Positions 2,796-19,056 are shown, numbered from the stretch's first letter. The stretch is DNA of 36,811 bases from Abditibacteriaceae bacterium (GCA_031425655.1 JANPJS010000084.1:1-36811); one strand, 5' to 3'. Notes: generated by a model not told the origin, from the letters alone. Numbers and translations: made by a program.

Positions 2796-3175
2796 AAACC
2801 AAGCTGCAATGACCGTCCACGATTCTTTTCCGACCTAAAGAGTAAGGTTTTACCGGGAATTTAGTGGAAGGTGCTAAAATCAGCCGATTTCACCTGAACA
2901 CTTTTTCACGTTGCCTTAGCATTTGGGGTAAAGGGAGCCATCAATGCTCAACCTGAATAATGCCATGACAGATAAGGTCAAACGGGAATACTTTACTCCT
3001 CAAAACAATGGCAAGAGGCTCTCGAAAGCGGGAATGTTTCCCCTATGCCAGCATCACCTTCTAAGGGTGATTTGGCTTGCTTCCATTAAATTCCCAGTAG
3101 AACCAAGAGTAAGAATTTCTTCAAGCCTTCCTAATTTCCCCTTATTATTCACAGTCTTTGGCAAACTGGCGGATT

Positions 3176-4978
3176 ATGATGACCACCATTTGTGCTTCTC
3201 ATCGCGCTGCGCCTTCGGATTGGGCACTGGCGCAGCGATCCTTGATTGCTCAGATGAACGAGGCTGCCCCGCTTTTTCAAGAGCGTTATACGCGCGCCGA
3301 CGGCACGTTTATTTGGCGCCAGAGTTGGCCGGGCATGGATGGCTCGGACGATGGCTACGAAAGTTACCACAACTGGCCGTTATTTTACGCCCTTGGCGGC
3401 TCCGACGACCTGCACCGGCGCAGTCGGTTTCTCTGGGATGCCGTCACGCGCCAATTCACCGCCTACGGTCAGGTGTGGCGCGAATTCGACGCCTACTACG
3501 ATTGGATGCATCACGGCGAAAGCTCTATTTACTTTTACTATTTTGGGTTGGCCGACCCCAATGTTCACGTTGATCGTGCCCTCACTTTGCGGTTTGCCGG
3601 GATGTATATGGGCGAGGATGCCGAAGCCTGCAACTGGGACAACGAACACCGCATGATGCGCTCGCCGATTAACGGCAGCAAAGGGCCGCGACTGGAAAAC
3701 TCGTGGGATGACTGGGCCACGCACCGCGCGATTTTAGCCAACTATCCGGCGCCTTTTGAAGATATTCCCGGTGTGACTACGCCGATTGCCGATTGGAATG
3801 ATGACACGGTTTATGGCGAGATTTTGCGCCTTTTAAACCAACGTCAGATGCGAGGCGATGTGCCGCTCAACCTCACCAGCACCAGCCTTATCACGCACGC
3901 TTATCTTTATACCGGCGAGGAGCATTATCGCCGCTGGGTGCTGGATTATTTGGAAGCGTGGGCCGGGCGCATCAAAGACAATGATGGCCTCTGCCCTGAT
4001 AACATCGGCCCCAACGGCATTATCGGCGAGTTGATGGGAGGCAAGTGGTGGGGTGGCTACTACGGCTGGCGCTGGCCGCATGGTTTCATGAGCATCATTC
4101 AACCGCTGACCATCGCGGCTATGAATGCTGTGCTTCTGACTGGCGACATGAGCTATCTGGATATTCCACGCGGCCAACTCGACCGAATGCTCGAATTAGG
4201 CCGCGAAGAAAACGGGCAACTGCTGGTGCCGCACCGTTACACCGATGCCGGTTGGACGGCCTATCAGCCACTGGCCCCCGAATTTCCCTTGCAAATCTGG
4301 AATATGTCGCAAGACCCGCGCGATTTAAAACGCCTCGACCTATTTCCCGAACGCCACACAACCTGGCATGAAGTGAGGCCCGGCAGGGGCAAAGGCGACG
4401 ATATCCATATCGCGCCCTGGTTTTGTTACCTCAACGGCACCAAGCCGGGCTACCCGCAGCAAATTCTGAACGCTCAATGGGAAGAAGTGGCGGCGCGCAT
4501 GGAACGCATCGCCAATGACAGCGGCGACCCTGAATCATGGGATGTGCATCACTGGCAGGAACTCAATCCGGTGCATACCGAAGCTCTGGTGCAACTGACC
4601 TGCGGCGGGCCGCAAATCATCTATCACGGTGGCTTGTTGCATATGCGTCTGCGCTACTTTGACAGCATCACGTCTCGCCCTGGCTTACCGCCCGACGTAG
4701 GCGCTTTGGTTTGCGCGTTGGACGCGCAAAGCACGACCGTCACCTTGTCTAATATTAGCCCGCTACATGAACGCCGCCTGATGGTGCAGGCCGGTGCATT
4801 TGGCGAACATGAGTTCACTGATCTGCTGAATTTGAGCGAAGATACAGCGCCGCTTGCTATCAACCACAAACACTTAGCCGTGACACTGCCACCGGGTCAT
4901 AGCATCACCTTAAAACTCGGTATGCGCCGCTATGTGAATCAACCAAGCTATGGAGGGATTACAGAGTCGCATATCTGA
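3176..4978 (+). CDS. Hypothetical protein (~600 aa), probable enzyme of unknown function
   Basis: Long ORF rich in W/Y/D/H motifs (DDGYESYHNWPLFYALGG, YDWMHHGE, GKWWGGYYGWRWPHG). No signal peptide. The ATG at 3176 is preferred over the TTG at 3158. Confidence 0.8.
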   Translation: MMTTICASHRAAPSDWALAQRSLIAQMNEAAPLFQERYTRADGTFIWRQSWPGMDGSDDGYESYHNWPLFYALGGSDDLHRRSRFLWDAVTRQFTAYGQVWREFDAYYDWMHHGESSIYFYYFGLADPNVHVDRALTLRFAGMYMGEDAEACNWDNEHRMMRSPINGSKGPRLENSWDDWATHRAILANYPAPFEDIPGVTTPIADWNDDTVYGEILRLLNQRQMRGDVPLNLTSTSLITHAYLYTGEEHYRRWVLDYLEAWAGRIKDNDGLCPDNIGPNGIIGELMGGKWWGGYYGWRWPHGFMSIIQPLTIAAMNAVLLTGDMSYLDIPRGQLDRMLELGREENGQLLVPHRYTDAGWTAYQPLAPEFPLQIWNMSQDPRDLKRLDLFPERHTTWHEVRPGRGKGDDIHIAPWFCYLNGTKPGYPQQILNAQWEEVAARMERIANDSGDPESWDVHHWQELNPVHTEALVQLTCGGPQIIYHGGLLHMRLRYFDSITSRPGLPPDVGALVCALDAQSTTVTLSNISPLHERRLMVQAGAFGEHEFTDLLNLSEDTAPLAINHKHLAVTLPPGHSITLKLGMRRYVNQPSYGGITESHI

Positions 4979-5111
4979 TCTCAAGTTTCAGCGGTAATTA
5001 TCAAGTGCTGCGGCAATATGTGCGAATGAGCAGCGTGCCTATGCCGCAAAAACCGAACATCGGAATACGATGTTCGGTTTTTGCTTTTATAACTCCACCT
5101 GTTCCAATAGC

Positions 5112-5459
5112 TTACGGCGCTTGCTTGCCGCGCGGTTGCACGATGCTCATCAGCGAGTGCAACAAGCGGGTGCGATACTCCGTTGCTGTTGTCACGTTGC
5201 GCTGGTGGAGTTCCAGAAGAGCGGTGTCCACCTCGAAGGCGCCCTCGGCGGTCTGATGCATGGGGATTGTGGTCTTGCTGTCGCCGTCCCATTCCACTTT
5301 CGTTGTAGCGGCTAAATTGGGTTCGGGTTCAGCGGCGCCGGCCTGAGGCGGCTTGACCTCGGTGTAATACGTCTCAACCGTCATCTCGCCGGCATCTTGG
5401 ATAGTATCGACTATCTTTTGCGCCGCTTTGCGAATAGAATTTTCCAGTTCGTTGGCCAC
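5112..5459 (-). CDS. Hypothetical protein, 115 aa; stand-alone copy of the domain shared with the two upstream genes
   Basis: GTG start with strong RBS (AAGGAG-AAAACT-GTG), 10 bp after the upstream stop. Motif 'VETYY...AATTKVEWDGDSKTTIP...LLELHQRNVTTATEYRTRLL'. Confidence 0.85.
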   Translation of the reverse strand: MANELENSIRKAAQKIVDTIQDAGEMTVETYYTEVKPPQAGAAEPEPNLAATTKVEWDGDSKTTIPMHQTAEGAFEVDTALLELHQRNVTTATEYRTRLLHSLMSIVQPRGKQAP

Positions 5460-5469
5460 AGTTTTCTCC

Positions 5470-6261
5470 TTAAATCGGTTGCCGGCTGCTTTGCAGTTCC
5501 AGCATTTGCTTGATAAATCTTAGCACGGCTGGCAGGGCCAACAACGGCCCGCCGGGTAGGGCCAGCCGAAACGCCAGGCTGATCGCCATTTGCACACTGG
5601 CCGCGAACATTTTCAGCATGGTTTCGCGCGATTTCAACGCCAAAGCGACCGTGCGTTGATGCAGCGTTACTTCTTCGACCGTTTTTCCGCCCGGCCACAC
5701 GGTTTGCACGTCGCCCGCCCAACTCACGACGGTGCGGCCCAACAAACGCCCCGCAATGCGCGTTTCGATCAACACCGAGTCCGCGACGCTTTGCCGCAGT
5801 TTATCCATGAGTGATTGGAAAACTTGTTGGGCCTGCTCCCAGCCTTGCATGGGCGCCGCCGCTAAGTCGGCGCCCATGCCGAAACTGACCTGCGCTTCAC
5901 CTGGCGGCGTTTGACCTTGCAGCAGGGCCAATAATTCGCGTTCGGGCGGAAGCAGGTCTTGATCCGGCTCGGCGCCGACGGCAAACGAAACGGCGGAATC
6001 GGAGGCGATTGGTTGCAATTGTTCGAGCCGGCCTGCTGCTGCCGCCAAGAGTTGCTGCGAGCGTTGCAGGCTGGTTTCGCTATCGCTGAGGCGCGATGCC
6101 GCCAGCGCAAAATCGTCCGGCAGATTCACCTGCCAGAGCGCCGGGGCATCGGTTGGCGCGGCAATATCGAACGATAGGGCGCCCGAAGCCGTTGCGGCAT
6201 CACTCGACCACAAATCCAACGCGTTTCCAGACGCAGTGCCGTCACACAGATTTAGCTCCAT
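5470..6261 (-). CDS. Hypothetical protein, 263 aa; helical N-terminal part, shared C-terminal domain and hydrophobic tail
   Basis: Starts 4 bp after the C25 stop. C-terminal motif 'IETRI...GRTVVSWAGDVQTVWP...TLHQRTVALALKSRETML', then hydrophobic 'MAISLAFRLALPGGPLLALPAVLRFIKQML'. Confidence 0.85.
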   Translation of the reverse strand: MELNLCDGTASGNALDLWSSDAATASGALSFDIAAPTDAPALWQVNLPDDFALAASRLSDSETSLQRSQQLLAAAAGRLEQLQPIASDSAVSFAVGAEPDQDLLPPERELLALLQGQTPPGEAQVSFGMGADLAAAPMQGWEQAQQVFQSLMDKLRQSVADSVLIETRIAGRLLGRTVVSWAGDVQTVWPGGKTVEEVTLHQRTVALALKSRETMLKMFAASVQMAISLAFRLALPGGPLLALPAVLRFIKQMLELQSSRQPI

Positions 6262-6265
6262 GAGT

Positions 6266-8371
6266 TCACAGCACTTTGACGACTTGAGCCAGACCGCTGG
6301 CCGCCGAAACCGCAGTTTTGAGCAGTTCAGCGCGATGCACCTGCGCTTGTTGCACCATCGCGACGTGAATGGCCCACAAATCGTCGTCTAAACCGCCATC
6401 GGTGGCCGGGACGCAGATTTCGGTGTCGCCGTCCAACTGAATGCGCGTAAAAGCGCGCAGGCGGGCGCCTTTCAACAAATCGTCGTTGCTTTGCGCGCTT
6501 TCCATGTCGTCGCTGACGTAGGTCTTCACTTCCAACTGCGCTACGTCCTTCACAAATTCCTGCAAAGCAACGCTCAATTGCTCGGTGAAGTCGCGTAGCG
6601 CGGCGCTGACTTTCTTCTTCAATTCGTCGGATTCGCCCCCGAAAAAGGGCACGCCAAATGAGGTCTCGCCATCTGCACCCGACGGAGGCGCGCCGAAAGA
6701 GGGCATCGCGGTCGCGGTTTGTCCGCCCATCATCACAGTGACTGTAATCGGCGGCAGAGCCGGTGCGGAAGACGCCTGCGTGCCAAAATGCGGATTCGGC
6801 GCGGATTGCGGATCGTTCGGCGGCGCGTCCGGTTTCTGTGGTTCTGTTGATTGTTGCATTGCGGTCTCCGTTGGCGCCGCTTTAGCCGGCACCGATTTGA
6901 CGAGTTCGATAATTGGCCTCTCCGGCACAGGCGCATCGCCGCTGGCGAACACCAAGCGCACCGCCGGGTCGCCGATGATGACGAAGCTGCGCGCATCGTT
7001 GTTAGCCGTCCACATTCCGGCTAATTCCAGGTCGTTGGGAATCGTGAAGTTGCGCTTGATGTCTTCCAATGCCACGGTGAGGTCGGAAGACAACTCAGCG
7101 TAGCGTTCGTTGAATTTTTCAATTGCCGAGCCAACCGGATGGCCTTCGAGCAGGCGCTTCACTGTGCTTTCATAAGCTGCGAGTTGAGGCCCGGCCCGGC
7201 CCCAGGTGAAGGAGTAGCCCCAGGCGCGCTCAACGTGGCCCAGCACCGCTAAAGCGCCGCCTTTGGGATGTCCGAGCAGTCGCTGTGGCAGGCGCGCCAC
7301 AAAAGGGTGCGGCGCGATGTCCGTCGGCGCCTTGAAAGCCATATGCGCGAAGTCGTCCAACTGCGGCGTGCCGGCGCCGTAGCAGGCGAAGTGAAAGGCA
7401 ATTAGTCCCAGCAATCGGGCGTCGTCCGCGATGTCTTCGGCGGATAGATAATGATCCTGCGAAGGCGGTCGTCTGCCCCATTCGCGCGGGCCGGGCCAAT
7501 CCTGACAAATTAGCGCGCCTTGATGCGGCAACTGGCGCGGATCGTCTTTGGGAAAGCCCATGCCGTGACTTGCCGTAAAAAGCAGCGCGGGAGTCTGAGC
7601 GCCGCCCAGCAAAGCCTGCAAATTCGATTTTTTTGCGCCGTCGCCGCTGAGCGTTTCGATTTTCCAGTCGGGCTGGTCGGCGGCTGCGTAATCGGCCAAA
7701 GGCTTGATCAAATCGCGGCTGCTGAGTTGGGTGGCTTTGTCGTCGGCATTGCAAACGCCGAAGAACGCCGCGCGGCGCGGTAGCGCAACTCCTTTGGTTT
7801 CGGCGGTCACCACGCTGCGAGCGTATTGCGCGTATTCCAGCAAAGTTGGAAAGTGGAGACGCCCAACCGCGTATTGCACGTCGAGCTGATATTGAAAGCG
7901 AAATGGGATGCCCGCCGGGTCGCCGACAAGCAGCAAATAATAAGGCACCTTTTTGGGGTCTGCCGGGCCGGGGCCGGCGCCGTAGCGCTCCAAAAACTGC
8001 TGTTTGGACTCGCCGGGCCGGTAAACGAACTCTCGATAATAGTTTTCGTTAGTCGCTGCCGTCTGCTTTTTCCGGTGTTCGATCAACTCGCGCAAGGCCT
8101 CGCGCAGTCCATCCGTAACGCTTTGGTCGGGGTTCCACGCGAAGACGATGCCCCAGCCGGTTTCCGCCAGATTTTTAGGGTCTACACCTTCAACCGGCGC
8201 GAAAGTCGGGTGTTTGGCGAGGTCGCGTTTCGCCTTTAATTCCTGCAAGTGCTTTTCGTCCACCTGCTCGCCCCGCACGATCTCCGACAACTGCTCTGGC
8301 GTCATTGGCGGCAGCAGATACTCGCCGGTCGCGCCGTTGATGCCGTTAAAAACTAACTGTTCGTCCTCCAC
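6266..8371 (-). CDS. Peptidase C25 (gingipain-like, clan CD) cysteine protease with Pro/Gln-rich linker and uncharacterised C-terminal domain
   Basis: Motifs 'PYYLLLVGDP..IPF' and 'YAVGRL', catalytic His in 'LLFTASHG', Cys in 'HFACYGAG', closing 'IIGDPAVRL'. GTG start with AAGGAG RBS. No signal peptide. Confidence 0.85.
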   Translation of the reverse strand: MEDEQLVFNGINGATGEYLLPPMTPEQLSEIVRGEQVDEKHLQELKAKRDLAKHPTFAPVEGVDPKNLAETGWGIVFAWNPDQSVTDGLREALRELIEHRKKQTAATNENYYREFVYRPGESKQQFLERYGAGPGPADPKKVPYYLLLVGDPAGIPFRFQYQLDVQYAVGRLHFPTLLEYAQYARSVVTAETKGVALPRRAAFFGVCNADDKATQLSSRDLIKPLADYAAADQPDWKIETLSGDGAKKSNLQALLGGAQTPALLFTASHGMGFPKDDPRQLPHQGALICQDWPGPREWGRRPPSQDHYLSAEDIADDARLLGLIAFHFACYGAGTPQLDDFAHMAFKAPTDIAPHPFVARLPQRLLGHPKGGALAVLGHVERAWGYSFTWGRAGPQLAAYESTVKRLLEGHPVGSAIEKFNERYAELSSDLTVALEDIKRNFTIPNDLELAGMWTANNDARSFVIIGDPAVRLVFASGDAPVPERPIIELVKSVPAKAAPTETAMQQSTEPQKPDAPPNDPQSAPNPHFGTQASSAPALPPITVTVMMGGQTATAMPSFGAPPSGADGETSFGVPFFGGESDELKKKVSAALRDFTEQLSVALQEFVKDVAQLEVKTYVSDDMESAQSNDDLLKGARLRAFTRIQLDGDTEICVPATDGGLDDDLWAIHVAMVQQAQVHRAELLKTAVSAASGLAQVVKVL

Positions 8372-8416
8372 AATTTTCTCCTTTGTAACGTTTTGTTTGC
8401 GACGATTTGTGCCGTT

Positions 8417-11400
8417 TCATTTGCCGGGCGGCGGCATCGGAATGGTGTAGGGATAAGGCGAATCATCGCCGATGTAGCGCTGCCACTCGTGTTGGGTCAG
8501 GTTGCGGTTGACGATGTTGAAGGCGCGCTTTTGCAAGGCCATATCCCACAGTCGCACCGAACCACTTTTGCCGACTGAGGCCAGGCTCCATCCCTCCGGG
8601 CCGAAAGCCACACTCGAAACGCCTTCGCCATGTCCCACCAGAGGCGACCCTATTGGTTGCTGTGTCGCCATATTCCAAACGCGGACGGTGCCATCGCTGT
8701 TGCCCGAAGCCAGCAGTGTGCTTCTCGGACTAAATGCCAAACTGTTGATGGAGGCTTGAATAGTGTCCAGACCGATGGCGTCGGGGTTTAAAGCTTGAAT
8801 TGCAGCGTTTCTTTGGTCGCTGACCTCCGGTTTCCACAGGCGGATGGTAGAGGTGATGGTAGAGTTCCGGTCAAAGCCTTCTTCGACCACTGCTACGGTT
8901 TTACCGTCCGAGGCGACAGCGAGTTTAGATAGTTGGGATGCACGGATAGCGCATTGATCCACTAATTTCCCGCTGCTAACCTCCCACAATTGCAATTGCA
9001 TACGACCATCACGGGAAGCCAGCCACTTTCCATTGGCGCTAAAGGCCATGTTGTAAATCCAGCTTTCAGCTTTTTTACTCTTATCGTAGCGCTTAACCCC
9101 TGTTTTCAGATCGCCAAAAACTACCGGGCCATAATCTCCAATCGCCAAAACATTTGACTGAGGGCTAAATGCGAGAGCCAACCCGGCGGTGTGCGGGAAG
9201 AGGGGAGTTCGTGGTTTTCCGGTGACCAACGATTGCACTTCTATGGTGCCGTCTTTGCGGCACCGAGCGAGCCATTTACCGTCGGCGCTGCACACTAACT
9301 GGTCGTCGTTTTCCTGTTTCGGGAACACCCGCAATTTGCTGGGCGAGGTCGAAGCGCTGCCGGTTGCTAAATTCCAGGCGATGATGCGGCCCTTGTCATC
9401 GTAGGAACGAAGCATTTTGCCGTCCGGCGAGAAAACGATGCCTTTGAAATTCTTCGGCGCCGCGCCGGGCTTAGGCTTCGGCATGGCTGGCTGGGATAAA
9501 GGTCGCCCGAAGGAACGGCGGCCATTGACATCCCATAGAAACAGTGAGCGATCCTGACCAACAGTCGCTAATGTGCCGCCATCACGGCTAAAGGCAAGAT
9601 ACGAAACTTTGTCCTGTCCTTTGAGAGTTTGAGCGCGCGCGAAACCGTCTTTCTTACGCCACTGCCGCAGCATGAGCGAGCCGTCGGTATGAGTGGATGC
9701 CAAAGCCTTACCGTCCGGGCTGAATATGAGGTCGTAGACGGCGGAGGCGCACTTCACGGTTTGGGGTGGCGCGGTGGGCACAGCGCCACCCCAAAATTCG
9801 ATTCGATTCTTACCTGTCTCCTCAAAGGCAAACGCCAGTCGCTGGCCGTTTCCGCTCAGGGCTAAACTGGAAAGATGATTTATTGGCCACTTTCGCACCC
9901 GGTGACCCGTCGTGGTGTTCCACAAGGTAACGCCAACCACTTTTTCCTTTTCGTGCGAGTAAGTTTGTGTGACCAAACGGCTGCCACTGTCATTGAGGTT
10001 AGAAGCCGAAAAATCAGCCGCGCGGGGCAAGTTCAATTGCTTAGGCGCTCCCAAACGGCGGAGTGGCCCGGTGCCTACGGCATCGAACCGGTAAAGCACG
10101 CCGTGGCCGGAACCGGGAGCAGCCCATACTAACAACTGGCGGTTTGTCGTAAAGGCTGCCTGATAAATGGTTTTTGCTGCCAGAGGGCGTTTATTCAGGA
10201 GCTTACGAGTTTTTGTGTCCCATAGCGCGAGCTTGCCCTTATCCGCCGTCACTAAGGTTTGGCCATTCGGGCTAAAGGCCGGAGTTAAAACGGAACGCCA
10301 TTTTTCCTGACTTTCTGAACTAAACTCCGAAAAACTTTGAGGCGAAGCAACTTTTGGTTCCAACTCCAGCATTGAACCGGGTTTTTTGCTTTCAACGTCC
10401 CACAGCCAAATATGCCTCTCAAAATCTACTGCCACCACAAAACGTCCATGCTTACTCACGGCGACCTTCATAATTGAGGTGGATGCCGACTCTGGCAAAG
10501 TCGGCGAAACAAATTGTGCCGTGACGCCGTCCACCATAATTGAGGTGGATGAGACTGAGTTAGACGGGATGCGCAAAATGCCTATCAACTGCGGGTTTTG
10601 CGACAGTGCGGAAAATAGCGCCGAGTTGGCCTCCCCGAAAATACCGGCGGACTTTTGCACTTCCGCTTCATAAGCAGGCTTTATAGCAACTTGAAATTTG
10701 GCGGCGTCGTGAAAGTTTAAGTTCCACTGGCTGAACCACAGCCACGGATCAATAGAGGTTTCGGCGGCTTGGTCGCCCTTTTTCCACGCCTCAATGCCAA
10801 GCAGCAGCGCCAATTCCGGTTGCTGGGCCGACTTAGCGCGGCTTTGTGCTGCCAGGCGCAGGGACACTGCTTGCAATCGCGACGCGGCTACAGCACTATG
10901 GCGCTTGGAATTTGACCAGAATAAGCTCATCAGAAGCAGAAAAAGCGAACACAGCAAGCCGCCTTGTAGCATCCGGCGCTGTTGCCGCGAGTGAGCATCA
11001 AGGCGACAGGCCTCGACGAATTTTTCTACAACCGGCGTGATTTCCTGAGGATGTTTGGCTGCCCAGCGTTGAGCCTTTTTCCACTCTTGCCCACCCAGCA
11101 ACTGATGGGGATTTCCGCCCTGGCTTGCCCAAAGCGTCGCTTGGCTTTGCAAGAGGGGAAGTATGTCCCTTGTTTCGTTATCATCGCTCGTCGGACTCAT
11201 CGGGTTCTCGCGCGCTGGCTTGAACCAAAGCACGCCAAAACGCTTCCCGACGCGCACCAGTTGTGGCCGCAAAAATCGCTGGTAACCACTCTTACCAATG
11301 AGGGCTACCAGAGTTAAGGCAATAATATAAAGGAGCCACGCAGTATGCTCAAAGAGAATCCATATAAAAAAGATGGGGTAGACCAACCCAATCAAAGGGA

Positions 11401-12967
11401 AAAGCACCCGATTGCGTCGTTGGGAGCGATGGTAGAGACGCGAGGCCTCGAAGAATTCTTTTTCGACGGGCGTGATTTCCAGAGGATGGGTGTCAGCCCA
11501 GCGCCGGGCCTTTTTCCATTCGCGCCCGCGCAGCAACAAGCCGGGATCGCGCTTTTCCTCCCAGAGAGGCGCCTGGGTTTGCAAGGGCACCAGATGTTGT
11601 TTGAACCACTCGGTGTTGCTCGCGCGAACCGGATCCACCAACCGGTCGTGCGCCAGTTCAAACCACCTCACGCCGCGCCGTTCCTCGACGCGCACCAAAT
11701 GGCTTTTTAGCAGGGCGTCTATGACCTTGTTTTCTGCTTCATCGTTAATTCCCTTCAGTGTGTCTTTGGCATCCTGCATCACCTGACTGCGAATGCCCTG
11801 CGGCGTTATCAATTCGCTGTCGAACCATTGGCGAAGCGCCCGCTCGCTAATGACGCTCTCCTTGGCGATGGCTTTCACCTTCTCGGCGTAAAATTCGGAC
11901 AAAGCTTTATCTATGTTGCCGACCAGTTTGACGTGTTCCGGGGTGATTTCTGGCGTTTGTGGCTCCAACTCCTGCCATTTTTCCCACAGGCGATGGCATA
12001 CCACTTGAAGCTGCACCGGCTCGACGTAGGGGCCGATTTTCTCTTCCGCCTCGCCGCCCAAACCCTGCACTTTGACTTTGGCCAGGCCTTCTATCAATGG
12101 CTTGGCCGTTGCATCGGAAAAAGTGACACTGCCTATCAATTGCTCCGCCGCCGCATCGGAAAACGTGACACCGCGTTCCTGTGCCGGCCCTTGCATCGCC
12201 TGACGCGCGGCGTCGTGGTTCAGCAGATCGAGGCGAAAACGGTTACTCAGGCGCGTCGGCACGAGGCCGGCGTAAGGCTCCAAGGCGCCCAAATAATCCT
12301 CGCGCACCACGAACAGCGCCCAGCGGTGGCGCTTTTGCAAGGCTTTTCCGACCTGCTTGAAAAATGCGTCTTTAACATCCTTATCGGTGGCGTCTTGCGT
12401 CAGGATTTCCTCGAATTGATCGAAGATGAGCACCTCATAGCGCTCGTTCGCCGCTTGCTCAGGCGCTCCGGCAGGCGCCGATTCTATCAACGCGCGCTGC
12501 GTCAAATAGTCGTCCAAGGTTAACGTCGCCAGTTCCTCTGGAGACAAGCGTTTTGCGTTGGGAAACAGTTTCGGGTCGGGTGAATTTTTTTCGAGGCATT
12601 GGAGAGCGTTGATCACGTAGCGATTGGCACCGGGAACCTGCGTGTCGCCGCTAACGCGCATGATGGGCAGCACCGCGAAACCCTCGGCGCGCAGCAGGGG
12701 CAGCAAAGCGGCATTTATCAGCGACGACTTGCCCGCTCCCGATGGCGAATGGAGCAGCACGATGCGCTCGGCGATGAGCCGGTCGAACAGTTTCGACGTT
12801 TCGCGCTTACGCCCGTAAATTTCTTTTCCGGCCTTAATCGGGCGCGGGCCAACATAGGGATTGTCATCGCGCGTGGCTGTAGAGTTAGCGGGCGCTGCGC
12901 CGTTTTGTCCGGCCAATTCGCCCGGCGTGGAGGGCGCTGCTGTGGTCTCAGATTTAGGTTCGCTCAT
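8417..12967 (-). CDS. nSTAND1-type NTPase with transmembrane helices and C-terminal WD40 repeats (1516 aa)
   Basis: Motifs 'NPYVGPRP', Walker A 'HSPSGAGKSS', Walker B 'LIFDQFEE', 'VREDY', 'FELAHDRL'. Three hydrophobic segments. WD40 repeats such as 'SLAFSPRSTLLASGNSDGTVRVWN' and 'GHGEGVSSVAFGPEG...VRLWD'. The start is most likely the ATG at 12967 (GGAGGG RBS, 4 bp after the upstream stop), not 13120. Confidence 0.9.
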   Translation of the reverse strand: MSEPKSETTAAPSTPGELAGQNGAAPANSTATRDDNPYVGPRPIKAGKEIYGRKRETSKLFDRLIAERIVLLHSPSGAGKSSLINAALLPLLRAEGFAVLPIMRVSGDTQVPGANRYVINALQCLEKNSPDPKLFPNAKRLSPEELATLTLDDYLTQRALIESAPAGAPEQAANERYEVLIFDQFEEILTQDATDKDVKDAFFKQVGKALQKRHRWALFVVREDYLGALEPYAGLVPTRLSNRFRLDLLNHDAARQAMQGPAQERGVTFSDAAAEQLIGSVTFSDATAKPLIEGLAKVKVQGLGGEAEEKIGPYVEPVQLQVVCHRLWEKWQELEPQTPEITPEHVKLVGNIDKALSEFYAEKVKAIAKESVISERALRQWFDSELITPQGIRSQVMQDAKDTLKGINDEAENKVIDALLKSHLVRVEERRGVRWFELAHDRLVDPVRASNTEWFKQHLVPLQTQAPLWEEKRDPGLLLRGREWKKARRWADTHPLEITPVEKEFFEASRLYHRSQRRNRVLFPLIGLVYPIFFIWILFEHTAWLLYIIALTLVALIGKSGYQRFLRPQLVRVGKRFGVLWFKPARENPMSPTSDDNETRDILPLLQSQATLWASQGGNPHQLLGGQEWKKAQRWAAKHPQEITPVVEKFVEACRLDAHSRQQRRMLQGGLLCSLFLLLMSLFWSNSKRHSAVAASRLQAVSLRLAAQSRAKSAQQPELALLLGIEAWKKGDQAAETSIDPWLWFSQWNLNFHDAAKFQVAIKPAYEAEVQKSAGIFGEANSALFSALSQNPQLIGILRIPSNSVSSTSIMVDGVTAQFVSPTLPESASTSIMKVAVSKHGRFVVAVDFERHIWLWDVESKKPGSMLELEPKVASPQSFSEFSSESQEKWRSVLTPAFSPNGQTLVTADKGKLALWDTKTRKLLNKRPLAAKTIYQAAFTTNRQLLVWAAPGSGHGVLYRFDAVGTGPLRRLGAPKQLNLPRAADFSASNLNDSGSRLVTQTYSHEKEKVVGVTLWNTTTGHRVRKWPINHLSSLALSGNGQRLAFAFEETGKNRIEFWGGAVPTAPPQTVKCASAVYDLIFSPDGKALASTHTDGSLMLRQWRKKDGFARAQTLKGQDKVSYLAFSRDGGTLATVGQDRSLFLWDVNGRRSFGRPLSQPAMPKPKPGAAPKNFKGIVFSPDGKMLRSYDDKGRIIAWNLATGSASTSPSKLRVFPKQENDDQLVCSADGKWLARCRKDGTIEVQSLVTGKPRTPLFPHTAGLALAFSPQSNVLAIGDYGPVVFGDLKTGVKRYDKSKKAESWIYNMAFSANGKWLASRDGRMQLQLWEVSSGKLVDQCAIRASQLSKLAVASDGKTVAVVEEGFDRNSTITSTIRLWKPEVSDQRNAAIQALNPDAIGLDTIQASINSLAFSPRSTLLASGNSDGTVRVWNMATQQPIGSPLVGHGEGVSSVAFGPEGWSLASVGKSGSVRLWDMALQKRAFNIVNRNLTQHEWQRYIGDDSPYPYTIPMPPPGK

Positions 12968-12971
12968 ATTC

Positions 12972-15203
12972 TTAACCCTCCGAATTCCATCTGGCGTGCA
13001 GATCCTTGGCGAAGTCATCGGCGCTGCCCCAATAAATGTTGATGTCCGAAACGCCAAAGTAGGTCTTGAAATAGCTTCGCGCGCTTTCCGGGTCTTTGAA
13101 ACTGTCGCTGGCTGGATCAATTTGCACCGCGACGTGGGTATATTTTTTCTTTTTCAGGAGTTCGCTTCCTTCCTGATTGACGATGCTGCGAAACAGCACC
13201 CGGAAACTCCAATCATCCACTTGAAAGCCCAAAAACAAGAGCGCCGACTTGGTCAGAGCAGCCGAAACCGTGTCCGGCGTGCGTGTTGCGTCTTTGGAAA
13301 TGCCAATCAAATAATCCAGATAGTCGTCCAGCGTCAAAACGAGTGAATCTGGCTGGCTTAAGTGGCCGAAGGGGTGGTAAACAAGCGGTTTTTCCGGCGT
13401 GGCTTCAAAATCCTGATCCAATTTGGCTGGTAAGTCTTCTAAATCGTGGTTCCATCGGCAAAATTCGACAACCGGGTTTTGGCCTTGCTTTGTAAGCGCG
13501 TCGCCCATGATGTTGTCCGAATTGGCCGAGATGTAAAGCGGCAGCTTCAGGCTGGCGAAGACGCGATGCGGCTCGTCTTCCGCTTCGCGTAGCAACTTTC
13601 CCACTTCGGAAAAGCGTGCGGACAGTAACTGGGCGGCTTCATTTTGTGAGAGCCGCCCAGTTGCTGTCCGCAGGTTCTCCGGTAGTTTGTTTTCGTAGCG
13701 TTTGAGCAGTTCCTGACTCAGGTGCTTAATTAACTCCTTGCACGCCACATCTTTCGTGAGTTTTGTAATCGCCACATATTGAGCAACTTGCGGCAGGTCG
13801 TCGCGATTATTGGGCGCCATCGGAAAATTATGCTCGTCGCCCCAGCGCCGCGCGATTTCGCGCGCCGGGCCGACAAACGATTCCTGAAGACCCGGCCCTA
13901 AAATCGGTGTGCATTGCTTGTCCTCAATATGGGAGATCAAGGCGTCCCACCAGGCGTCGTCTTTTTCTTTGTCGTCCAACCTGAGGCCGGTTTCATACCA
14001 GCCGATGCGCCCGCTTTTCAAGCGCATGAACAAGACCGGCATCCAGCAGTCGCCGTGATCGCGCACTTCTCCGCGCGCGGCGGCGACGGCGCGATCAATC
14101 TGCTCGTCGCGGATCAGTTCCGTAAAGAAGCGGGGCATGAACTTCTCGACGGTTTCCATCGTGACTTTGCCCTGCATGGCGATAACGGCGGGCACGCCGG
14201 CATTGGCCAAAAGCGCCCCCAGAGTCGTCAGAGAATTGAGCGGCCCCTGCGACGCCTCTTCGGTCAGTCCGTCTCCGGCGCTCTGGCACGAAGCCAACAC
14301 CACAAGGCGCGGGCGCTGCGGCAGTTCTTTCAATCGCTTCGCCAGTTCGGCGCCCCATTCTCCGGCAATGTTGCCCTTGTCATCTTCGAGAAAAAGGCGC
14401 GCCTGCTCGTCGGTAAATGCGCCGTGACAGACCAAATAGAGGATGTCGTAGCCCTCGCCCAGCTTGGTGGCGATCTTGTTCAACGTGGCGATGCCCGGTT
14501 TATTCGGGTCGGAACACAAAGTTTCGAGCGGAATTCTTTTTTCTAACTTCGCGCTCTCGCTGGCGCGGGCCAGTTCCTCCAAAATTGTGCCTAAGTTCGC
14601 CTTATCGTCTTTTAGTTTCTGGGCTTGTTCCTCCCGGATTGTGCCTAAGCCGACGGCAACGCGGAGCAGTTCGCCTTCGACATCAATGGCTGCCAGCGCC
14701 ACGGTGCTGCCCAGACCGCGCGGGTTCGCAATCACGACCAGCGCCTTTCGGTCGCGCATTGGGCGCATATCAATCGGGCGCAGGTCGTCGCTGCTCAGAT
14801 AACGCGAAAACAGCAGGGTTTGATCGGTGAAGAGCGACACGTCTGTGCCCGGCTTGTCGGGATCGCGCAGTTTTTCCCAGTGCAGATCGTGTAATTTGGG
14901 GCAGTCGTGATCAAGGAAAAGGCGCATTCGCAGCGTCGCGTTGGTCGCTTGTGCCGTCGTGCGCGCCGTGCGAAACGCGGCGAGCAGCGGCTCCGACCAC
15001 AATGATTCGCCTAAAATCTGGGCGTAGGCCGAGCTGTCGTCATTTAAGCGATTCAGCGCCTCGAAGTCGAAATTCAGCCGCGCCGAATCGCCGGGCAAAA
15101 GATGCACTTCGGAGTCGCTGTTCGGCGGGGTGTAACGCACTTCGGCTCTATAACCGCCTTCTGCTTGTTTGAGGCTAATTTCCACATCGGCGTAAATAGG
15201 CAT
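12972..15203 (-). CDS. CHAT (caspase-fold) protease fused to a C-terminal SIR2-like (SIR2_2) domain
   Basis: CHAT motifs: 'LHDLHWEKLRDP', His in 'LYLVCHG', Cys in 'LVVLASCQS', 'GVPAVIAMQ', 'WMPVLF'. SIR2-like motifs: 'CTPILGPG', 'LYISANSD', 'LVYHPFGH...LVLTLDDY', 'LLFLGFQVDDWSFRVLF'. Confidence 0.88.
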   Translation of the reverse strand: MPIYADVEISLKQAEGGYRAEVRYTPPNSDSEVHLLPGDSARLNFDFEALNRLNDDSSAYAQILGESLWSEPLLAAFRTARTTAQATNATLRMRLFLDHDCPKLHDLHWEKLRDPDKPGTDVSLFTDQTLLFSRYLSSDDLRPIDMRPMRDRKALVVIANPRGLGSTVALAAIDVEGELLRVAVGLGTIREEQAQKLKDDKANLGTILEELARASESAKLEKRIPLETLCSDPNKPGIATLNKIATKLGEGYDILYLVCHGAFTDEQARLFLEDDKGNIAGEWGAELAKRLKELPQRPRLVVLASCQSAGDGLTEEASQGPLNSLTTLGALLANAGVPAVIAMQGKVTMETVEKFMPRFFTELIRDEQIDRAVAAARGEVRDHGDCWMPVLFMRLKSGRIGWYETGLRLDDKEKDDAWWDALISHIEDKQCTPILGPGLQESFVGPAREIARRWGDEHNFPMAPNNRDDLPQVAQYVAITKLTKDVACKELIKHLSQELLKRYENKLPENLRTATGRLSQNEAAQLLSARFSEVGKLLREAEDEPHRVFASLKLPLYISANSDNIMGDALTKQGQNPVVEFCRWNHDLEDLPAKLDQDFEATPEKPLVYHPFGHLSQPDSLVLTLDDYLDYLIGISKDATRTPDTVSAALTKSALLFLGFQVDDWSFRVLFRSIVNQEGSELLKKKKYTHVAVQIDPASDSFKDPESARSYFKTYFGVSDINIYWGSADDFAKDLHARWNSEG

Positions 15204-15219
15204 AATGAGGTTACCCTTT

Positions 15220-15254
15220 TTGAGGTGAACGGCTTTATTTTCACCTCAATTATA
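15220..15254 (-). promoter_or_regulatory. Candidate -10 box and palindromic operator in the divergent intergenic region
   Basis: Minus-strand TATAAT at 15249-15254. Perfect 10-bp inverted repeat TTGAGGTGAA (15220-15229) / TTCACCTCAA (15240-15249) with a 10-bp spacer. No clear -35. Confidence 0.4.
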
Positions 15255-15384
15255 CAGCCTGCGCTGTCAGGCGCGATAATTACGGTTATCACAAGTCGGG
15301 AGCAATGTGATTGCCCTGCGGCGCGAATGGCCGGGCACAGTCGGAGATTCAAACGGACGTATACTTTCGTGACACTGAGTCGCC

Positions 15385-18300
15385 ATGGCACTGCAAACCA
15401 TTAAAATCTTCATTTCTTCGCCCGGCGACGTGGGGCAGGAACGCCTCATCGCGACGCGCGTTCTGGAGCGCCTTCAGGGTGAATTCGCCGCTTACGCTGT
15501 GCTTCAGCCGATTCTCTGGGAACACGAGCCTCTGCGCGCGACCGCGCATTTTCAAGAGCAAATTCTTCCGCCCTCGCAGACCGACATCGTGATTTGCATT
15601 CTCTGGTCGCGTTTGGGCACGCGACTGCCGAACGAGAAATTCGCACGCGAAGACGGCACCGCTTACGCTTCGGGAACCGAATGGGAATTCGAGGATGCCG
15701 TGCAGTCGTTTTTGCAGCGCGGCACGCCCGATTTGATGGTGTATCGCAAGACCAGCGAAGCCGTGACTTCGTTAGCCGACGAAGAAGCTTTGCTTGGCCG
15801 TTTGCAGCAGAAAAAAGCGCTCGATAGCTTTATCGAACGCTGGTTCGGCAGCGCGCAAAGCACCTTTCGCGCGGCGTTTCATACCTTCGCGGCGCCCGAT
15901 CAATTTGAAGAAATTATCGAAAGCCACTTGCGAAACCTGATTCGAGAGCGTTTGCCGCAGCATCTCGAAGAAGGCGGCGAGAAAACGCCGATTTTGTGGC
16001 ACAAAGGCTCGCCGTTTCGCGGCTTGGAAGCCTTTGATGTCGAACACGCGCCGGTCTTTTTTGGGCGCACGCGCGCCATCGGTGAAACCAAAGACGCTCT
16101 CGTGGCGCGGGCCGCGAACGGCTGCGCGTTTCTGCTGGTTTTCGGCATGAGCGGCAGCGGCAAATCGTCGCTCGTGCGCGCAGGCCTGCTGCCGACTCTC
16201 ACGCAGCCGGGCGTGGTCGAGGGCATCGGACTGTGGCGCTGGGCCATTTTTCGTCCCAGCGATGCCGCCGGCGATATTTTTCACGGTCTGGCCATGTCGC
16301 TGCTGGCTGCCGCAGCCGTGCCGGAAATGAGCGCCGATGGGCTGGATGTGGTTGAACTCGCCGCGTTTTGCCGCGAATCGCCGCAGCGCGTGGTCGGCTT
16401 GATTCGCACTGCTCTTAAGCGCGCCGCCGTGGCCGAAGAAGCCAAAGAAAAGCTGACGGCGCCGCCCGCAGCGCGCCTCGCACTGGTCATTGACCAAATG
16501 GAGGAGCTTTTCACCCAAGAGCAGCTCAGCGCCGAAGCGCGCGAAGCGTTCGTGGGCCTTTTGACGGCGCTGGCGCAAAGCGATCTGGTGTGGATTATCG
16601 GCACCATGCGCAGCGATTTTTATCCGCGCTGCGCCGAAGTGCCCGCGCTCAGCGCGCTCAAAGAACAAGGCGCGCAATACGATTTATTGCCGCCTTCGTT
16701 CACCGAAATACGCCAGATGATTTCGCAGCCGACGCGCGCCGCCGGTTTGCGCTTCGAGGTTGAGCGTAGCAGCGGCGAAAGCCTGAACGACGTGTTGCAC
16801 GAAGCCGCCAGCCACGACCCCGAAGGCCTGCCTCTGCTGGAATTTACCCTCGACGCGCTTTATCACGAGCGCACCGAAGGCGGCGTGCTGACTTTCGCGG
16901 CTTATCAAAAATTGGGCGGACTCGAAGGCGCTTTATCCCAACGCGCCGAAAACGTGTTTCTGGCGTTGGCGCCGCCGTCGCAGGAAGTGCTGCCCGAAGT
17001 GCTGCGAATGCTGGTTACCGTCGAGGAAGAAGGCAATCGCGTGGCGCGGCGGCGCGTGGACATCGCCGCTTTAGAAACCACGCCGGAGCGCAAAAATCTC
17101 GTCCAAGCCTTTATTCAGGCGCGCCTTTTCGTGGTTGATCGCGCCGAAGGCACGGCTGTTGTCGGCGTGGCGCACGAAACGCTGCTGCGCCACTGGCCGC
17201 GCCTGGAGCAATGGTTGGACGAAGATCGTGAATTTTTGCTGCAACGCGAACGCATGGCCAGCGCCGCGACGCTGTGGAAAAACGAAGGCGCGGCTGCCGA
17301 TTTTTTGTTGCACGAAGGCAAAGCGTTAGCCGAAGCGAAGGACATTTTAGCGCGCCGCCGCGCCGAGCTTGAGCCGAATTTGGTGCAGTTTATCGAAGCC
17401 TCGCAGCATCGCGTGAGCGCCCTGCGCCGCCGCAAAATCGTCACGGCCAGTTCGATTATCGCGGCGTTTTTTCTTGTGGTTTCGGGCTTTGGTTTGATGA
17501 GTTATATGCAGTGGCAGCGCGCCGAAAAGCAAAAAGACCTCGCTTTGGCGGCGATTAACACTTGGACGCGCGACATTCCCGACAAACTGCGCGATGTGCC
17601 CGGCACGTTGCCGGTTTTGCGCGAGATTTTTGAAAAAAACGTCGGCATTTTAGACAGCATTCTCAAACTCAGCCCGAACACGCCGACCGCGATGCGCGAA
17701 AAAGCCATGAATTTTCGGCACAGCGGCGACACTTGGCGCGTGCTTGGCGCCACGCAATCGGCGCTGGAATCGTATGAGCAAAGCATGGCGATTCTGACGA
17801 AAATTGCCACTCAGGATAACGATTTTCAGGTGCGGCGCGATCTCGCCTCTTGTCATCAGCACATCGGCGATACGCGCATGGAAATCGGCGATCTCAAAGG
17901 CGCGGAAGAATCGTATCGAAAAGACCTCGAACTCACGACGGCTTTCGCCGAGGAGCGCAACGACGCCGGAACACGCAACGATTTGTCGGTCAGCTACGAA
18001 AAAATCGGCGATGTGCTGTGGCAAAAAGGCGACAAGAAGAAGGCACTGCAAACTTACGAAAAGAGTCTGGCGCTCCGCGTCGAGTTGGCGAAGGACAAAA
18101 GTAACAAGGAAGCTCAGCGCAATCTCTTCGTGAGTCACGAAAAATTGGGCACGATTTATCTGGCGCTGGGCGACGGCAAACGCGCGCTGGAAGAATATCA
18201 AACCAGTCTGGCGCTGCGCGTTGCGTTGGCCAAAGCGAACCCTAAAGACATGGAATTTCAGCGCGATTTAGCCGTCGGCTACGTTCAAATGGGCACCATG

Positions 18301-18876
18301 CGCCAGCAGCTCAGTGACGGCGCGGGCGCGATGCAAAATTATTTGCGCGCCCACGACATTTTTAAATATCAGGCCAGAGACCGCTTCAGCGTGCGCGCTC
18401 AGTTGGGTTTGGCGGAAAGCTTTGTCCGTATCGGTGACCTTCAGCAGGCGATGGGCGATAATCAAAAAGCGTTGGACGCTTATCGGCAAAGCATCGCCGT
18501 CACCAGAGAAGTGGCGCAGGATAAAACCAACATTCAAGCGCGCAAATACCTGGTTGAAAGCTATGCGCGTTTGGCCTGGATCGCATTGCTCAACCGGCGC
18601 CCGCAGGAAACGATTTTCGCCGCGCGCGAAGCGTTGAAACTCGATCCGAGTCAAAACGAAATCAAGGTGAATTTAGCGCACGCTTATCTTTTTACAAATC
18701 AAGTGGAAAAGGCGATGGCCACCTATTTGAAAAACGAAGCTGTGAAAATCAACGCGCAGCAGACATTCGCCGATGTGGCTCTGGCCGACTTCAAGCAGTT
18801 CAAAAGTCGGGGCCTGATTCATCCGCGCATGGATGAAATCGCGCGCTTGATGGTCGAAGCGCGCAAGCTGTTGTAA
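15385..18876 (+). CDS. DUF4062/TIR-like + nSTAND1 NTPase + single TM + TPR repeat protein
   Basis: N-terminal 'KIFISSPGDVGQER...DIVICILWSRLGT...SGTEWEFEDA', then 'SPFRGL', Walker A 'GMSGSGKSS', Walker B 'LVIDQMEE', 'MRSDF', 'LPLLEF', 'AHETL'. TM 'IIAAFFLVVSGFGLM'. TPRs of the type 'RDL.VS.EKIGD...GD...AL..Y.KSL'. Confidence 0.9.
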   Translation: MALQTIKIFISSPGDVGQERLIATRVLERLQGEFAAYAVLQPILWEHEPLRATAHFQEQILPPSQTDIVICILWSRLGTRLPNEKFAREDGTAYASGTEWEFEDAVQSFLQRGTPDLMVYRKTSEAVTSLADEEALLGRLQQKKALDSFIERWFGSAQSTFRAAFHTFAAPDQFEEIIESHLRNLIRERLPQHLEEGGEKTPILWHKGSPFRGLEAFDVEHAPVFFGRTRAIGETKDALVARAANGCAFLLVFGMSGSGKSSLVRAGLLPTLTQPGVVEGIGLWRWAIFRPSDAAGDIFHGLAMSLLAAAAVPEMSADGLDVVELAAFCRESPQRVVGLIRTALKRAAVAEEAKEKLTAPPAARLALVIDQMEELFTQEQLSAEAREAFVGLLTALAQSDLVWIIGTMRSDFYPRCAEVPALSALKEQGAQYDLLPPSFTEIRQMISQPTRAAGLRFEVERSSGESLNDVLHEAASHDPEGLPLLEFTLDALYHERTEGGVLTFAAYQKLGGLEGALSQRAENVFLALAPPSQEVLPEVLRMLVTVEEEGNRVARRRVDIAALETTPERKNLVQAFIQARLFVVDRAEGTAVVGVAHETLLRHWPRLEQWLDEDREFLLQRERMASAATLWKNEGAAADFLLHEGKALAEAKDILARRRAELEPNLVQFIEASQHRVSALRRRKIVTASSIIAAFFLVVSGFGLMSYMQWQRAEKQKDLALAAINTWTRDIPDKLRDVPGTLPVLREIFEKNVGILDSILKLSPNTPTAMREKAMNFRHSGDTWRVLGATQSALESYEQSMAILTKIATQDNDFQVRRDLASCHQHIGDTRMEIGDLKGAEESYRKDLELTTAFAEERNDAGTRNDLSVSYEKIGDVLWQKGDKKKALQTYEKSLALRVELAKDKSNKEAQRNLFVSHEKLGTIYLALGDGKRALEEYQTSLALRVALAKANPKDMEFQRDLAVGYVQMGTMRQQLSDGAGAMQNYLRAHDIFKYQARDRFSVRAQLGLAESFVRIGDLQQAMGDNQKALDAYRQSIAVTREVAQDKTNIQARKYLVESYARLAWIALLNRRPQETIFAAREALKLDPSQNEIKVNLAHAYLFTNQVEKAMATYLKNEAVKINAQQTFADVALADFKQFKSRGLIHPRMDEIARLMVEARKLL

Positions 18877-18894: not shown

Positions 18895-19040
18895 GCCCCC
18901 ACCTAATCCTGCCCGAAGGGCACCCGCCCGGAGGGGGAGGAATTACGCTTTTGAAGATACATAAAGCTTTCCAAAGCAAAGTTCCTCCCCCTCCGGGGAG
19001 GTTAGGTGGGGGCAACCGGGCGGGTAGCAAGTAGGCTGAT
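18895..19040. repeat. GC-rich palindromic REP/MITE-like element (degenerate copy)
   Basis: GCCCCCACCTAA (18895-18906) pairs with 19002-19013, and CCCGGAGGGGGAGGAA (18927-18942) pairs with 18982-18997. It shares TTACGCTTTT and a GGTAGCAA end with the 26084-26275 element. Confidence 0.75.
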
Positions 19041-19056
19041 TTTAAAGGAGTTCCCA

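Follow-up and report, generated by a model that had tools for sequence, protein, structure and literature searches.

We found that in a 36,811-nt stretch of DNA from Abditibacteriaceae bacterium (GCA_031425655.1 JANPJS010000084.1:1-36811; hereafter the window, in whose coordinates all positions are given) a five-gene operon on the minus strand (5112-15203) encodes a C25-like protease, C, with a C-terminal domain of about 110-120 amino acids (aa) that profile methods also detect in the two small proteins encoded next to it, D and E. Across genomes, D follows C almost only where C bears this shared domain, and structural models predict that D docks on the C-terminus of C through the two domain copies. 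The synteny of the cluster is conserved, and it is therefore not a chance arrangement. The map of open reading frames (ORFs) confirmed the layout given in an earlier reading of this DNA (the original prediction), namely five consecutive, co-directional genes in the order A-B-C-D-E with intergenic gaps of 4, 45, 4 and 10 nt. The genes, and the parts of C and D on which the argument turns, are as follows:

12972-15203, minus strand: gene A, 743 aa, CHAT domain plus SIR2-like domain
8417-12967, minus strand: gene B, 1516 aa, nSTAND1 NTPase, transmembrane part and WD40 repeats
6266-8371, minus strand: gene C, 701 aa, GTG start, C25-like protease with the shared domain at its C-terminus
5470-6261, minus strand: gene D, 263 aa
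5112-5459, minus strand: gene E, 115 aa, stand-alone shared alpha/beta domain
C aa 1-475, minus strand: protease part, cytosolic, clan-CD, C25-like
C between the protease part and aa 580, minus strand: Pro/Ala-rich linker
6626-6664 (C aa 570-582), minus strand: linker motif [FY]-G-[LIV]-x-[DE], directly before the shared domain
6269-6634 (C aa 580-701), minus strand: shared domain of C, with the E-family profile match at 6296-6580 (1.2e-18)
D before aa 139, minus strand: helical N-terminal part, with flexible loops carrying conserved SF motifs (F31, F93, F127)
5563-5847 (D aa 139-233), minus strand: shared core of D (helix 139-158, strands 162-188, helix 195-233)
5488-5577 (D aa 229-258), minus strand: tail of D, hydrophobic helix-PGG-helix, last helix 238-258

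The domain shared by C, D and E

Pairwise BLASTP among C, D and E returned nothing significant, and the relationship emerges with profiles. Using hhalign, the E family aligned to the C-terminus of C at 99.6% (E=7e-24, 104 columns) and to the C-terminal half of D at 95% (E=4e-8, 59 columns), while the C-terminus of C aligned to D at 60.6%. When the E-family profile was searched against its own genome, exactly three matches were obtained, which are E itself (5e-42), C at nt 6296-6580 and D at nt 5587-5754 (3.5e-4). Additionally, E-like ORFs of other genomes match residues ~590-695 of C at 1e-4 to 3e-18. These profile comparisons indicate that the three domains are paralogous, which bears out the original prediction that the two small proteins are homologous to the C-terminus of the protease.

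A search of 1.84 billion representatives with the E-family profile yielded 651 proteins at E<=1e-3, of which 329 also passed E<=1e-10. Of the 150 matches listed, the majority are free-standing proteins of ~110 aa, and some are longer proteins (650-750 aa) with the domain at their end. One further protein, P0121 (2675 aa), has a Trypsin_2-nSTAND1-WD40 architecture with four tandem copies of an E-like domain (residues 992-1327); here the shared domain would also form part of a STAND protein joined to a serine protease, and this could be an assembly or gene-call artefact. Neither D nor E had a Pfam match even at E<=10, the 82 E-family members had no informative Pfam match, and NCBIfam gave no meaningful match for any of the five proteins.

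The AlphaFold2 model of E, based on 82 sequences, has a predicted local distance difference test score (pLDDT) of 90.8 and the topology a1-b1-b2-b3-b4-b5-a2 (helix 2-22; strands 25-32, 48-56, 61-64, 67-69 and 75-77; helix 79-107). Neither E nor D had a Foldseek match in the PDB at E<=0.001. In a wide fold search for E, the top three chains were 3f42_B of the YbaB family (Z 5.2, root-mean-square deviation (rmsd) 5.4, 80 residues aligned), 1ybx_B (Z 5.0) and 1pug_A (Z 4.9); E and the YbaB chains align over 80-86 residues at an rmsd of 5.0-6.2 and an identity of 6-10%, with Z values below the usual chance best match. The YbaB/EbfC proteins (PDB 3f42, 1ybx, 1pug) share with the E model the topology of helix, small sheet and helix, and they dimerise; at these Z values we speak of a resemblance only. 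The wide structural search for D gave scattered helical matches only (Z<=5.6), and the ESM Atlas scores for D and E (0.76-0.77) were below lead level.

The model of D (AlphaFold2, pLDDT 77.7) begins with an N-terminal strand and a long helix, and its loops 22-36, 86-97 and 125-128 are of low confidence, each holding a nearly invariant Phe (F31, F93 and F127, respectively). A word-indexed search for homologues of D returned 17 proteins only. In the tail, L243 and P244 are invariant, P236 and G238 are nearly invariant, and the whole segment is strongly hydrophobic in Nostoc homologues (Kyte-Doolittle mean up to 2.42).

Next, we co-folded C(560-701) with full-length D, using a separate alignment for each partner, three runs and three controls. 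The interaction prediction score from aligned errors (ipSAE) was 0.71, 0.75 and 0.72 (median 0.72), and the best of the three controls reached 0.00. The median mark is reached by 116 of 157 solved complexes and by 2 of 215 mismatched pairs, a calibration that is only rough here since the co-fold used self-built alignments. Contact agreement among the runs was at least 73% and the pLDDT of the partners at least 69. The predicted interface consists of the two shared-domain copies, packed helix to helix, with the C strand 615-618 lying against D 185-188. The model thus supports binding, with D predicted to dock on the C-terminus of C via the shared domain. The original prediction had envisaged a cleaved, self-assembling effector; a domain that is predicted to pair D with C fits docking or an adaptor role at least as well.

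Directly before the first helix of the shared domain, the linker of C homologues carries the pattern [VA]-[DE]-[YF]-G-[LIV]-x-D, with its [FY]G[LIVMF] core present in 43/50 sequences, and homologues of D carry a similar [VT]-S-F-G-[LIV]-x-[DE], with the core in 28/41. In both C and D the motif falls in a flexible segment that takes no part in the predicted interface, and the stand-alone E proteins start right after the equivalent point. We therefore treat the linker motif as a candidate cleavage or docking site.

As for the protease itself, the Pfam match of C to Peptidase_C25 (PF01364) is weak (24.3 bits vs a cut-off of 23) and covers profile positions 288-374 of 374 only, while most C homologues bear a precomputed PF01364 label. 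The C family profile matched no solved gingipain at E<=1 and no solved protease. H269 and C330, which follow the clan-CD order, are invariant in 50 sequences. Gingipains are secreted and have a signal peptide; a hydrophobicity scan of C found no hydrophobic segment and hence no signal peptide. Thus, in the signal-less C25 protease of the original prediction, the dyad and the absence of a hydrophobic N-terminus hold. The family is very large and occurs in many phyla: 7272 clusters were found at E<=0.001 among the 8000 candidates scored, most of the 120 matches listed are 50-60% identical to C over the full length across phyla, and the source names seen are all 'hypothetical' except for the generic C25 label. 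The first ~20 residues of C (window 8290-8371, minus strand) are nearly invariant across phyla, with F8, N9, G10 and G16 invariant in 50 sequences; the conservation of this extreme N-terminus is unusually strong and it may be a docking or processing site. Some C homologues have other, long C-terminal extensions, in which no Pfam domain was found. In five loci (L037, L047, L071, L015 and L004), two or three C25-like genes stand in tandem, with and without the shared domain.

Synteny and distribution of the cluster

We compiled 79 loci around C homologues in species-representative genomes, from Chloroflexota, Cyanobacteriota, Acidobacteriota and Planctomycetota, among others. The window proteins and family hidden Markov models (HMMs) served to annotate the ORFs in these loci. 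The full order of CHAT plus SIR2, STAND-WD40, C, D and E recurs in five loci (L009, L029, L033, L046 and L074), and the same parts occur in a different order in L038, L048, L050 and L053. Homologues of the five genes therefore co-occur elsewhere as a recurring unit, as a synteny check of the original prediction should find if it was right. L048 accounts for one row of the counts and for a single sequence in each of the alignments A3 and A5, and no conclusion rests on it. A gene with CHAT plus SIR2 is present in 18/78 loci with a called C unit, and a CHAT domain in 44/52 loci of at least 15 kb. When examining individual lineages, we observe that in Nostocales the partner of C is a fused CHAT-nSTAND1-(transmembrane)-WD40 protein, and that cyanobacterial loci keep CHAT, STAND and C but have no SIR2-like domain.

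Complete C units followed by at least 1200 nt of sequence numbered 74; partitioned by the presence of the shared domain and of D, they gave the following counts:

Shared domain in C and D adjacent: 29/74
Shared domain in C and D not adjacent: 3/74, two of which have D elsewhere in the locus
C without the shared domain and D adjacent: 1/74, in which C is frameshifted and the domain is a separate ORF
C without the shared domain and D not adjacent: 41/74

The loci are mutually related, and the co-occurrence is given without a P-value for this reason; the pattern recurs in several phyla. Of the 27 units that have both the domain and D and at least 2 kb of room, 13 include an E-like gene.

Of 81 related genomes, two yielded C: that of the window and that of a congener, whose C is 66% identical. 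Searches of the remaining 25 genomes of the family found none. Such patchiness among relatives, together with an identity of 50-60% in distant phyla, is typical of mobile accessory systems. Homologues of C are frequent in filamentous Nostocales and in Chloroflexota.

The first protease, the membrane sensor and their surroundings

The remaining features of the operon and its borders are the following:

14058-15026 (A aa 60-382), minus strand: CHAT domain, Pfam CHAT (PF12770), 90.9 bits
13059-13538 (A aa 556-715, the Pfam stretch), minus strand: SIR2-like domain, SIR2_2, 65.6 bits, cut-off 24.5
11633-12817 (B aa 51-445), minus strand: nSTAND1 NTPase, Pfam PF20703, 113.6 bits, cut-off 27.1
11282-11413 (B aa 519-562), minus strand: hydrophobic segment 1, long enough for two helices
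10913-10975 (B aa 665-685), minus strand: hydrophobic segment 2, from a hydrophobicity scan
8519-9799 (B aa 1057-1483, best Pfam stretches), minus strand: WD40 repeats, 123.6 bits
5046-5084, no strand assigned: hairpin with a 17-bp stem and T-runs, 28 nt past the E stop, from a pattern scan only
15204-15384, no strand assigned: divergent intergenic region between gene A and a DUF4062-nSTAND1-TPR gene, from the ORF map

These domain scores agree with the earlier description of A as a CHAT protease fused to a SIR2-like domain and of B as a membrane nSTAND1-WD40 protein. The CHAT dyad of A is intact, with H260 kept in 15/15 relatives and C306 in 14/15. Gene A alone found no match among solved chains, and a profile of 15 A-type proteins aligns to the ThsA structure 6lhx with E=2.8e-13. 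We take the His of the 'HG' motif (His152) and the Asn of 'TTNYD' to be the catalytic residues of ThsA. At the His column the A family has Phe in 14/15 and Tyr in 1/15, with His in 0/15, and an alternative His two residues upstream is kept in 14/15 relatives; the Asn is kept in 8/15, including the window copy as N561, and the Gly-rich motif of the domain is retained in A. A canonical NADase role of the SIR2-like domain, to which the original prediction had alluded, is doubtful because the catalytic His of ThsA is replaced by Phe in 14/15 sequences. In PADLOC-DB, gene A has only weak ThsA-SIR2 matches (1.5e-7) and gene B matches one repeat model only.

The translation of B contains a GxxxxGK[ST]-type motif, presumably the Walker A P-loop of the NTPase. 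The gene starts at the ATG at 12967, inside a longer frame with an upstream TTG; this choice yields the 4-nt gap to gene A, and the homologues agree with it. The 15 homologues with both STAND and WD40 matches have one transmembrane segment between the NTPase and WD40 parts, whereas B of the window has three predicted spans, because a juxtamembrane helix module is duplicated together with its membrane segment (53% identity over 62 aa, E=6e-19; window 10880-11620, minus strand). The three spans give the same predicted end topology as the single segment of the homologues. By the positive-inside rule, the positively charged flank of a membrane segment is cytoplasmic. Upon summing Lys and Arg over 15 residues on each flank in the 15 homologues, we counted 87 on the NTPase side vs 33 on the WD40 side, and for this reason the NTPase is probably cytoplasmic and the WD40 propellers outward-facing.

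The operon has clear boundaries because a hairpin with T-runs follows E and a divergent nSTAND1 gene lies upstream of A. The hairpin at 5046-5084 stands between E and a convergent ORF and is likely a two-way terminator closing the operon, and the region 15204-15384 is likely its promoter region, in which sigma-70-like matches were weak (7 vs 4.3 expected from shuffles). The convergent ORF (3158-4978, plus strand, 606 aa) has no Pfam match, and neither does a 209-aa ORF (2944-3573) that overlaps it. On the other side, the divergent nSTAND1-TPR gene (15385-18876, plus strand) has a DUF4062 stretch before its NTPase (22.2 bits, cut-off 24.7), as does a further nSTAND1-TPR gene at 30725-35452 (plus strand; 22.1 bits, just below the same cut-off). 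Directly downstream of the former lies a pair of genes, a 309-aa DUF4384 protein (19006-19935, plus strand) and, starting 6 nt later, a 1264-aa TPR-CHAT protein (19942-23736, plus strand; CHAT 216 bits), and next to the nSTAND1-TPR gene this pair looks like a second STAND-plus-CHAT module. With two extra nSTAND1 genes and a TPR-CHAT gene in the window, the operon therefore sits in a conflict-gene island.

Function of the operon in the light of known systems

Among experimentally studied systems, the nearest is that of a type III-B CRISPR/CBASS locus, in which, according to Steens et al. (10.1101/2023.06.23.546230), an oligomerisation-activated 'initiator', SAVED-CHAT, cleaves the 'executioner' PCaspase, which in turn cleaves a small bound inhibitor, PCi. 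Our operon resembles it in that a conserved locus encodes two caspase-fold proteases, one of them CHAT, with small partner proteins beside the pair, and by analogy CHAT would act on C. It differs in that its sensor is a membrane STAND-WD40 protein and not SAVED with cyclic triadenylate (cA3), that its second protease is C25-like and not C14, and that this protease has a domain in common with D and E. No SAVED or C14 Pfam domain was found in the five proteins.

More broadly, the nSTAND1 conflict systems described by Kaur, Burroughs, Iyer and Aravind combine the NTPase with repeat sensors, caspase-superfamily peptidases and SIR2- or TIR-type domains (PMC7159879, PMC8195603), and these papers describe neighbouring genes coupled by a shared small domain, the 'EAD-coupling principle', with a bias to multicellular bacteria (eLife 2020 PMC7159879; 2021 PMC8195603). 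Both the domain repertoire and the coupling of adjacent genes through a small domain are alike in our operon. The shared domain itself is unlike the effector-associated domain (EAD), being alpha/beta and devoid of a Pfam model, whereas the EAD is Death-like and helical. In the passages of PMC7159879 and PMC8195603 considered here, a C25-like second protease and the D and E families were not seen. As to the sensor, caspase-STAND-WD40 'Apaf-1-like' proteins occur in cyanobacteria (PMC13581612), an architecture that we also find, fused, beside C in Nostoc loci, whereas the CHAT of our operon is a separate protein bearing a SIR2-like domain. The available text of PMC13581612 mentions no transmembrane segment between NTPase and propeller and no C25-like partner gene, and that of PMC10907252 reports periplasm-facing sensors in nSTAND1/NACHT systems. 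Full-text searches, within the collection of papers covered, gave no description of a C25-like protease with CHAT and STAND, of the D and E families or of the shared domain. The general class is in print, with nSTAND1 conflict systems, a cascade from CHAT to a second caspase and protease-activated small effectors; what is new is a predicted docking domain borne by the protease and shared with its neighbours.

The names Pepco and CATASP reportedly come from Nicastro et al. 2023. Pepco (Trypco1 PF19493/Trypco2 PF19631, ~117 aa) and EACC1 (PF19953) are described as membrane toxins licensed by a neighbouring protease, serine or caspase-like, some of which have transmembrane STAND partners (Evans et al. 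2025, PMC12642450), and they are for this reason the obvious candidates for D and E. The setting is alike, with small proteins beside a protease that may have a transmembrane STAND partner. EACC1, with its alpha/beta elements and a transmembrane helix with a small-residue patch (as outlined in PMC7159879), is similar to D in form only, D having an alpha/beta core and a hydrophobic helix-PGG-helix and adjoining the caspase-type C. Our operon differs from these systems in that the domain of the small protein recurs in the protease, which is predicted to bind D through this copy. Pepco is an oligomeric beta-barrel activated by loss of a C-terminal tail, and the E monomer is modelled as helix-sheet-helix. 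When the Trypco1, Trypco2 and EACC1 Pfam models were tried, 0/82 E-family and 0/41 D-family members matched at E<=1. Comparison by hhalign with 20 Trypco1 and 3 Trypco2 genome-derived sequences stayed below 1%, a weak test since Trypco1 vs Trypco2 also stays below 1%. Trypco1, Trypco2 and EACC1 were not found in the window's own genome, and Trypco2 was found in 2/301 sampled genomes of the phylum. EACC1 gave marginal matches only, in 5/401 genomes, from which no good alignment could be built, so that this comparison is weakly sampled; the D, E and C-terminal-domain HMMs found nothing in the loci with these EACC1-like matches. By these searches, the shared domain is not detectably Trypco1, Trypco2 or EACC1. 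Gasdermin, which the original prediction had set aside as the effector, was indeed not among the Pfam matches of the five proteins or their neighbours.

Our favoured reading, to which we give about even credence, is that the operon is a conflict or cell-death system of the nSTAND1 class with a membrane sensor, a two-tier protease cascade and a docked partner, D. As its first layer, B would be the sensor, a membrane-spanning STAND NTPase with the NTPase in the cytoplasm and the WD40 part facing outward; A, in which a degenerate SIR2-like domain is joined to a CHAT protease, would be the first protease; and in the third layer the cytosolic C would pair through its C-terminal domain with the paralogous domain of D, E being a free third copy. 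A cue from the envelope or the outside would turn B on, B would oligomerise and activate the CHAT protease, and this in turn would process C or the C-D complex, as SAVED-CHAT does PCaspase. Cleavage in the conserved flexible linkers, at [FY]-G-[LIV]-x-[DE], would free a C-terminal piece of D, whose helix-PGG-helix tail would then act on the membrane, and E may tune the pairing of C with D. Of the inflammasome-like pathway originally proposed, the STAND sensor and the two caspase-fold proteases with intact dyads remain; the analogy to a cytosolic sensor fits poorly because the WD40 part is predicted to be extracytoplasmic.

Several observations weigh against this reading. The 41/74 complete C units without the shared domain have neither D nor E, and many still adjoin CHAT-STAND genes; D and E are therefore an add-on and not the core or universal output. 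In many homologues from Chloroflexota the tail of D does not reach a simple threshold of hydrophobicity, no hydrophobic segment is present in E, and in the co-fold residues 237-244 of the D tail pack on helix 1 of C and are not free. The linker motif, though conserved, may serve as a structural cap and not be cleaved. PADLOC-DB v2.0.0 (2023) returned no named system and no match for C, D or E, in agreement with the earlier statement that the combination is not a named one. The weak likeness of E to YbaB, the rough calibration of the co-fold and the failed match to known protease-licensed toxins count on the same side. D may be a latent membrane effector or a regulator. Its conserved hydrophobic tail, its flexible loops with conserved motifs and its protease-linked genomic position speak for an effector, while the many C units without D and the packing of the tail on C in the model speak for a regulator or add-on.

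The alternative that survives best takes the same system and makes D and E its regulators, as bound inhibitors or chaperones of C in the manner of PCi, with broad proteolysis by C as the death output; we consider it possible and somewhat unlikely. The C units that stand beside CHAT-STAND genes with no shared domain, D or E suggest that the protease alone can be the output, E is present in under half of the units with room to show it, and the co-fold seats D, hydrophobic tail included, tightly on the C-terminal domain of C. There is also a precedent in PCi, a small inhibitor cleaved by PCaspase (10.1101/2023.06.23.546230). However, the hydrophobicity of the D tail in Nostoc and its invariant L243 and P244, with the nearly invariant P236 and G238, would be unusual for a soluble inhibitor, and the predicted contact of D is with the C-terminal domain of C, not with the active site.

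A bolder form of the favoured reading, put forward tentatively and in our view unlikely, is a transmembrane 'apoptosome', in which an outward WD40 receptor would signal through STAND and CHAT to a C25-like executioner preloaded, via a new YbaB-like heterodimerising domain, with the latent membrane effector D, to be released by cleavage after an acidic linker residue. If true, it would mean that protease and substrate can dock by sharing one domain, which would be a novel principle, and it would add one more family to the protease-licensed effectors.

Quite improbable, by comparison of the evidence, is a non-immune role in outside-in signalling or envelope surveillance in multicellular or filamentous bacteria (development, kin recognition or stress), with an external WD40 receptor driving limited regulatory proteolysis. 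The predicted location of the WD40 part outside the cytoplasm would suit it, as would the abundance of C in filamentous Nostocales and Chloroflexota and a conservation of C that is unusually high for a defence gene, with 50-60% identity across phyla and many invariant columns. Yet C is very patchy among close relatives (2/81, its own genome included), the operon adjoins other conflict-type genes (nSTAND1, CHAT and DUF4062), and its set of domains matches that reported for conflict systems (PMC7159879, PMC8195603). Finally, a reading in which, as in Thoeris ThsA or DSR2, the system acts mainly by NAD+ depletion through the SIR2-like domain of A, with the proteases as accessories, is very improbable, since the SIR2_2 and ThsA matches, the retained Gly-rich motif and N561 of the window copy are set against the loss of the catalytic His throughout the family, an Asn kept in only about half of it, and cyanobacterial loci that lack the domain and keep CHAT, STAND and C.

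Returning to the favoured reading of a sensor, a protease cascade and a docked partner, the steady pairing of C25-like proteases with CHAT and STAND points to a second widespread two-protease cascade, besides the one CRISPR-linked case in print. To our knowledge, the NLR-like (nucleotide-binding leucine-rich repeat-like) STAND switches tested so far detect cytosolic phage proteins, and an outward-facing STAND sensor would broaden the view of how such switches are triggered. If D is a membrane effector, it would join the short list of protease-licensed bacterial death proteins, which comprises gasdermin, Pepco and EACC1. Overall, the shared domain leads to a testable hypothesis, namely that a protease holds its partner by means of a copy of that partner's own fold.

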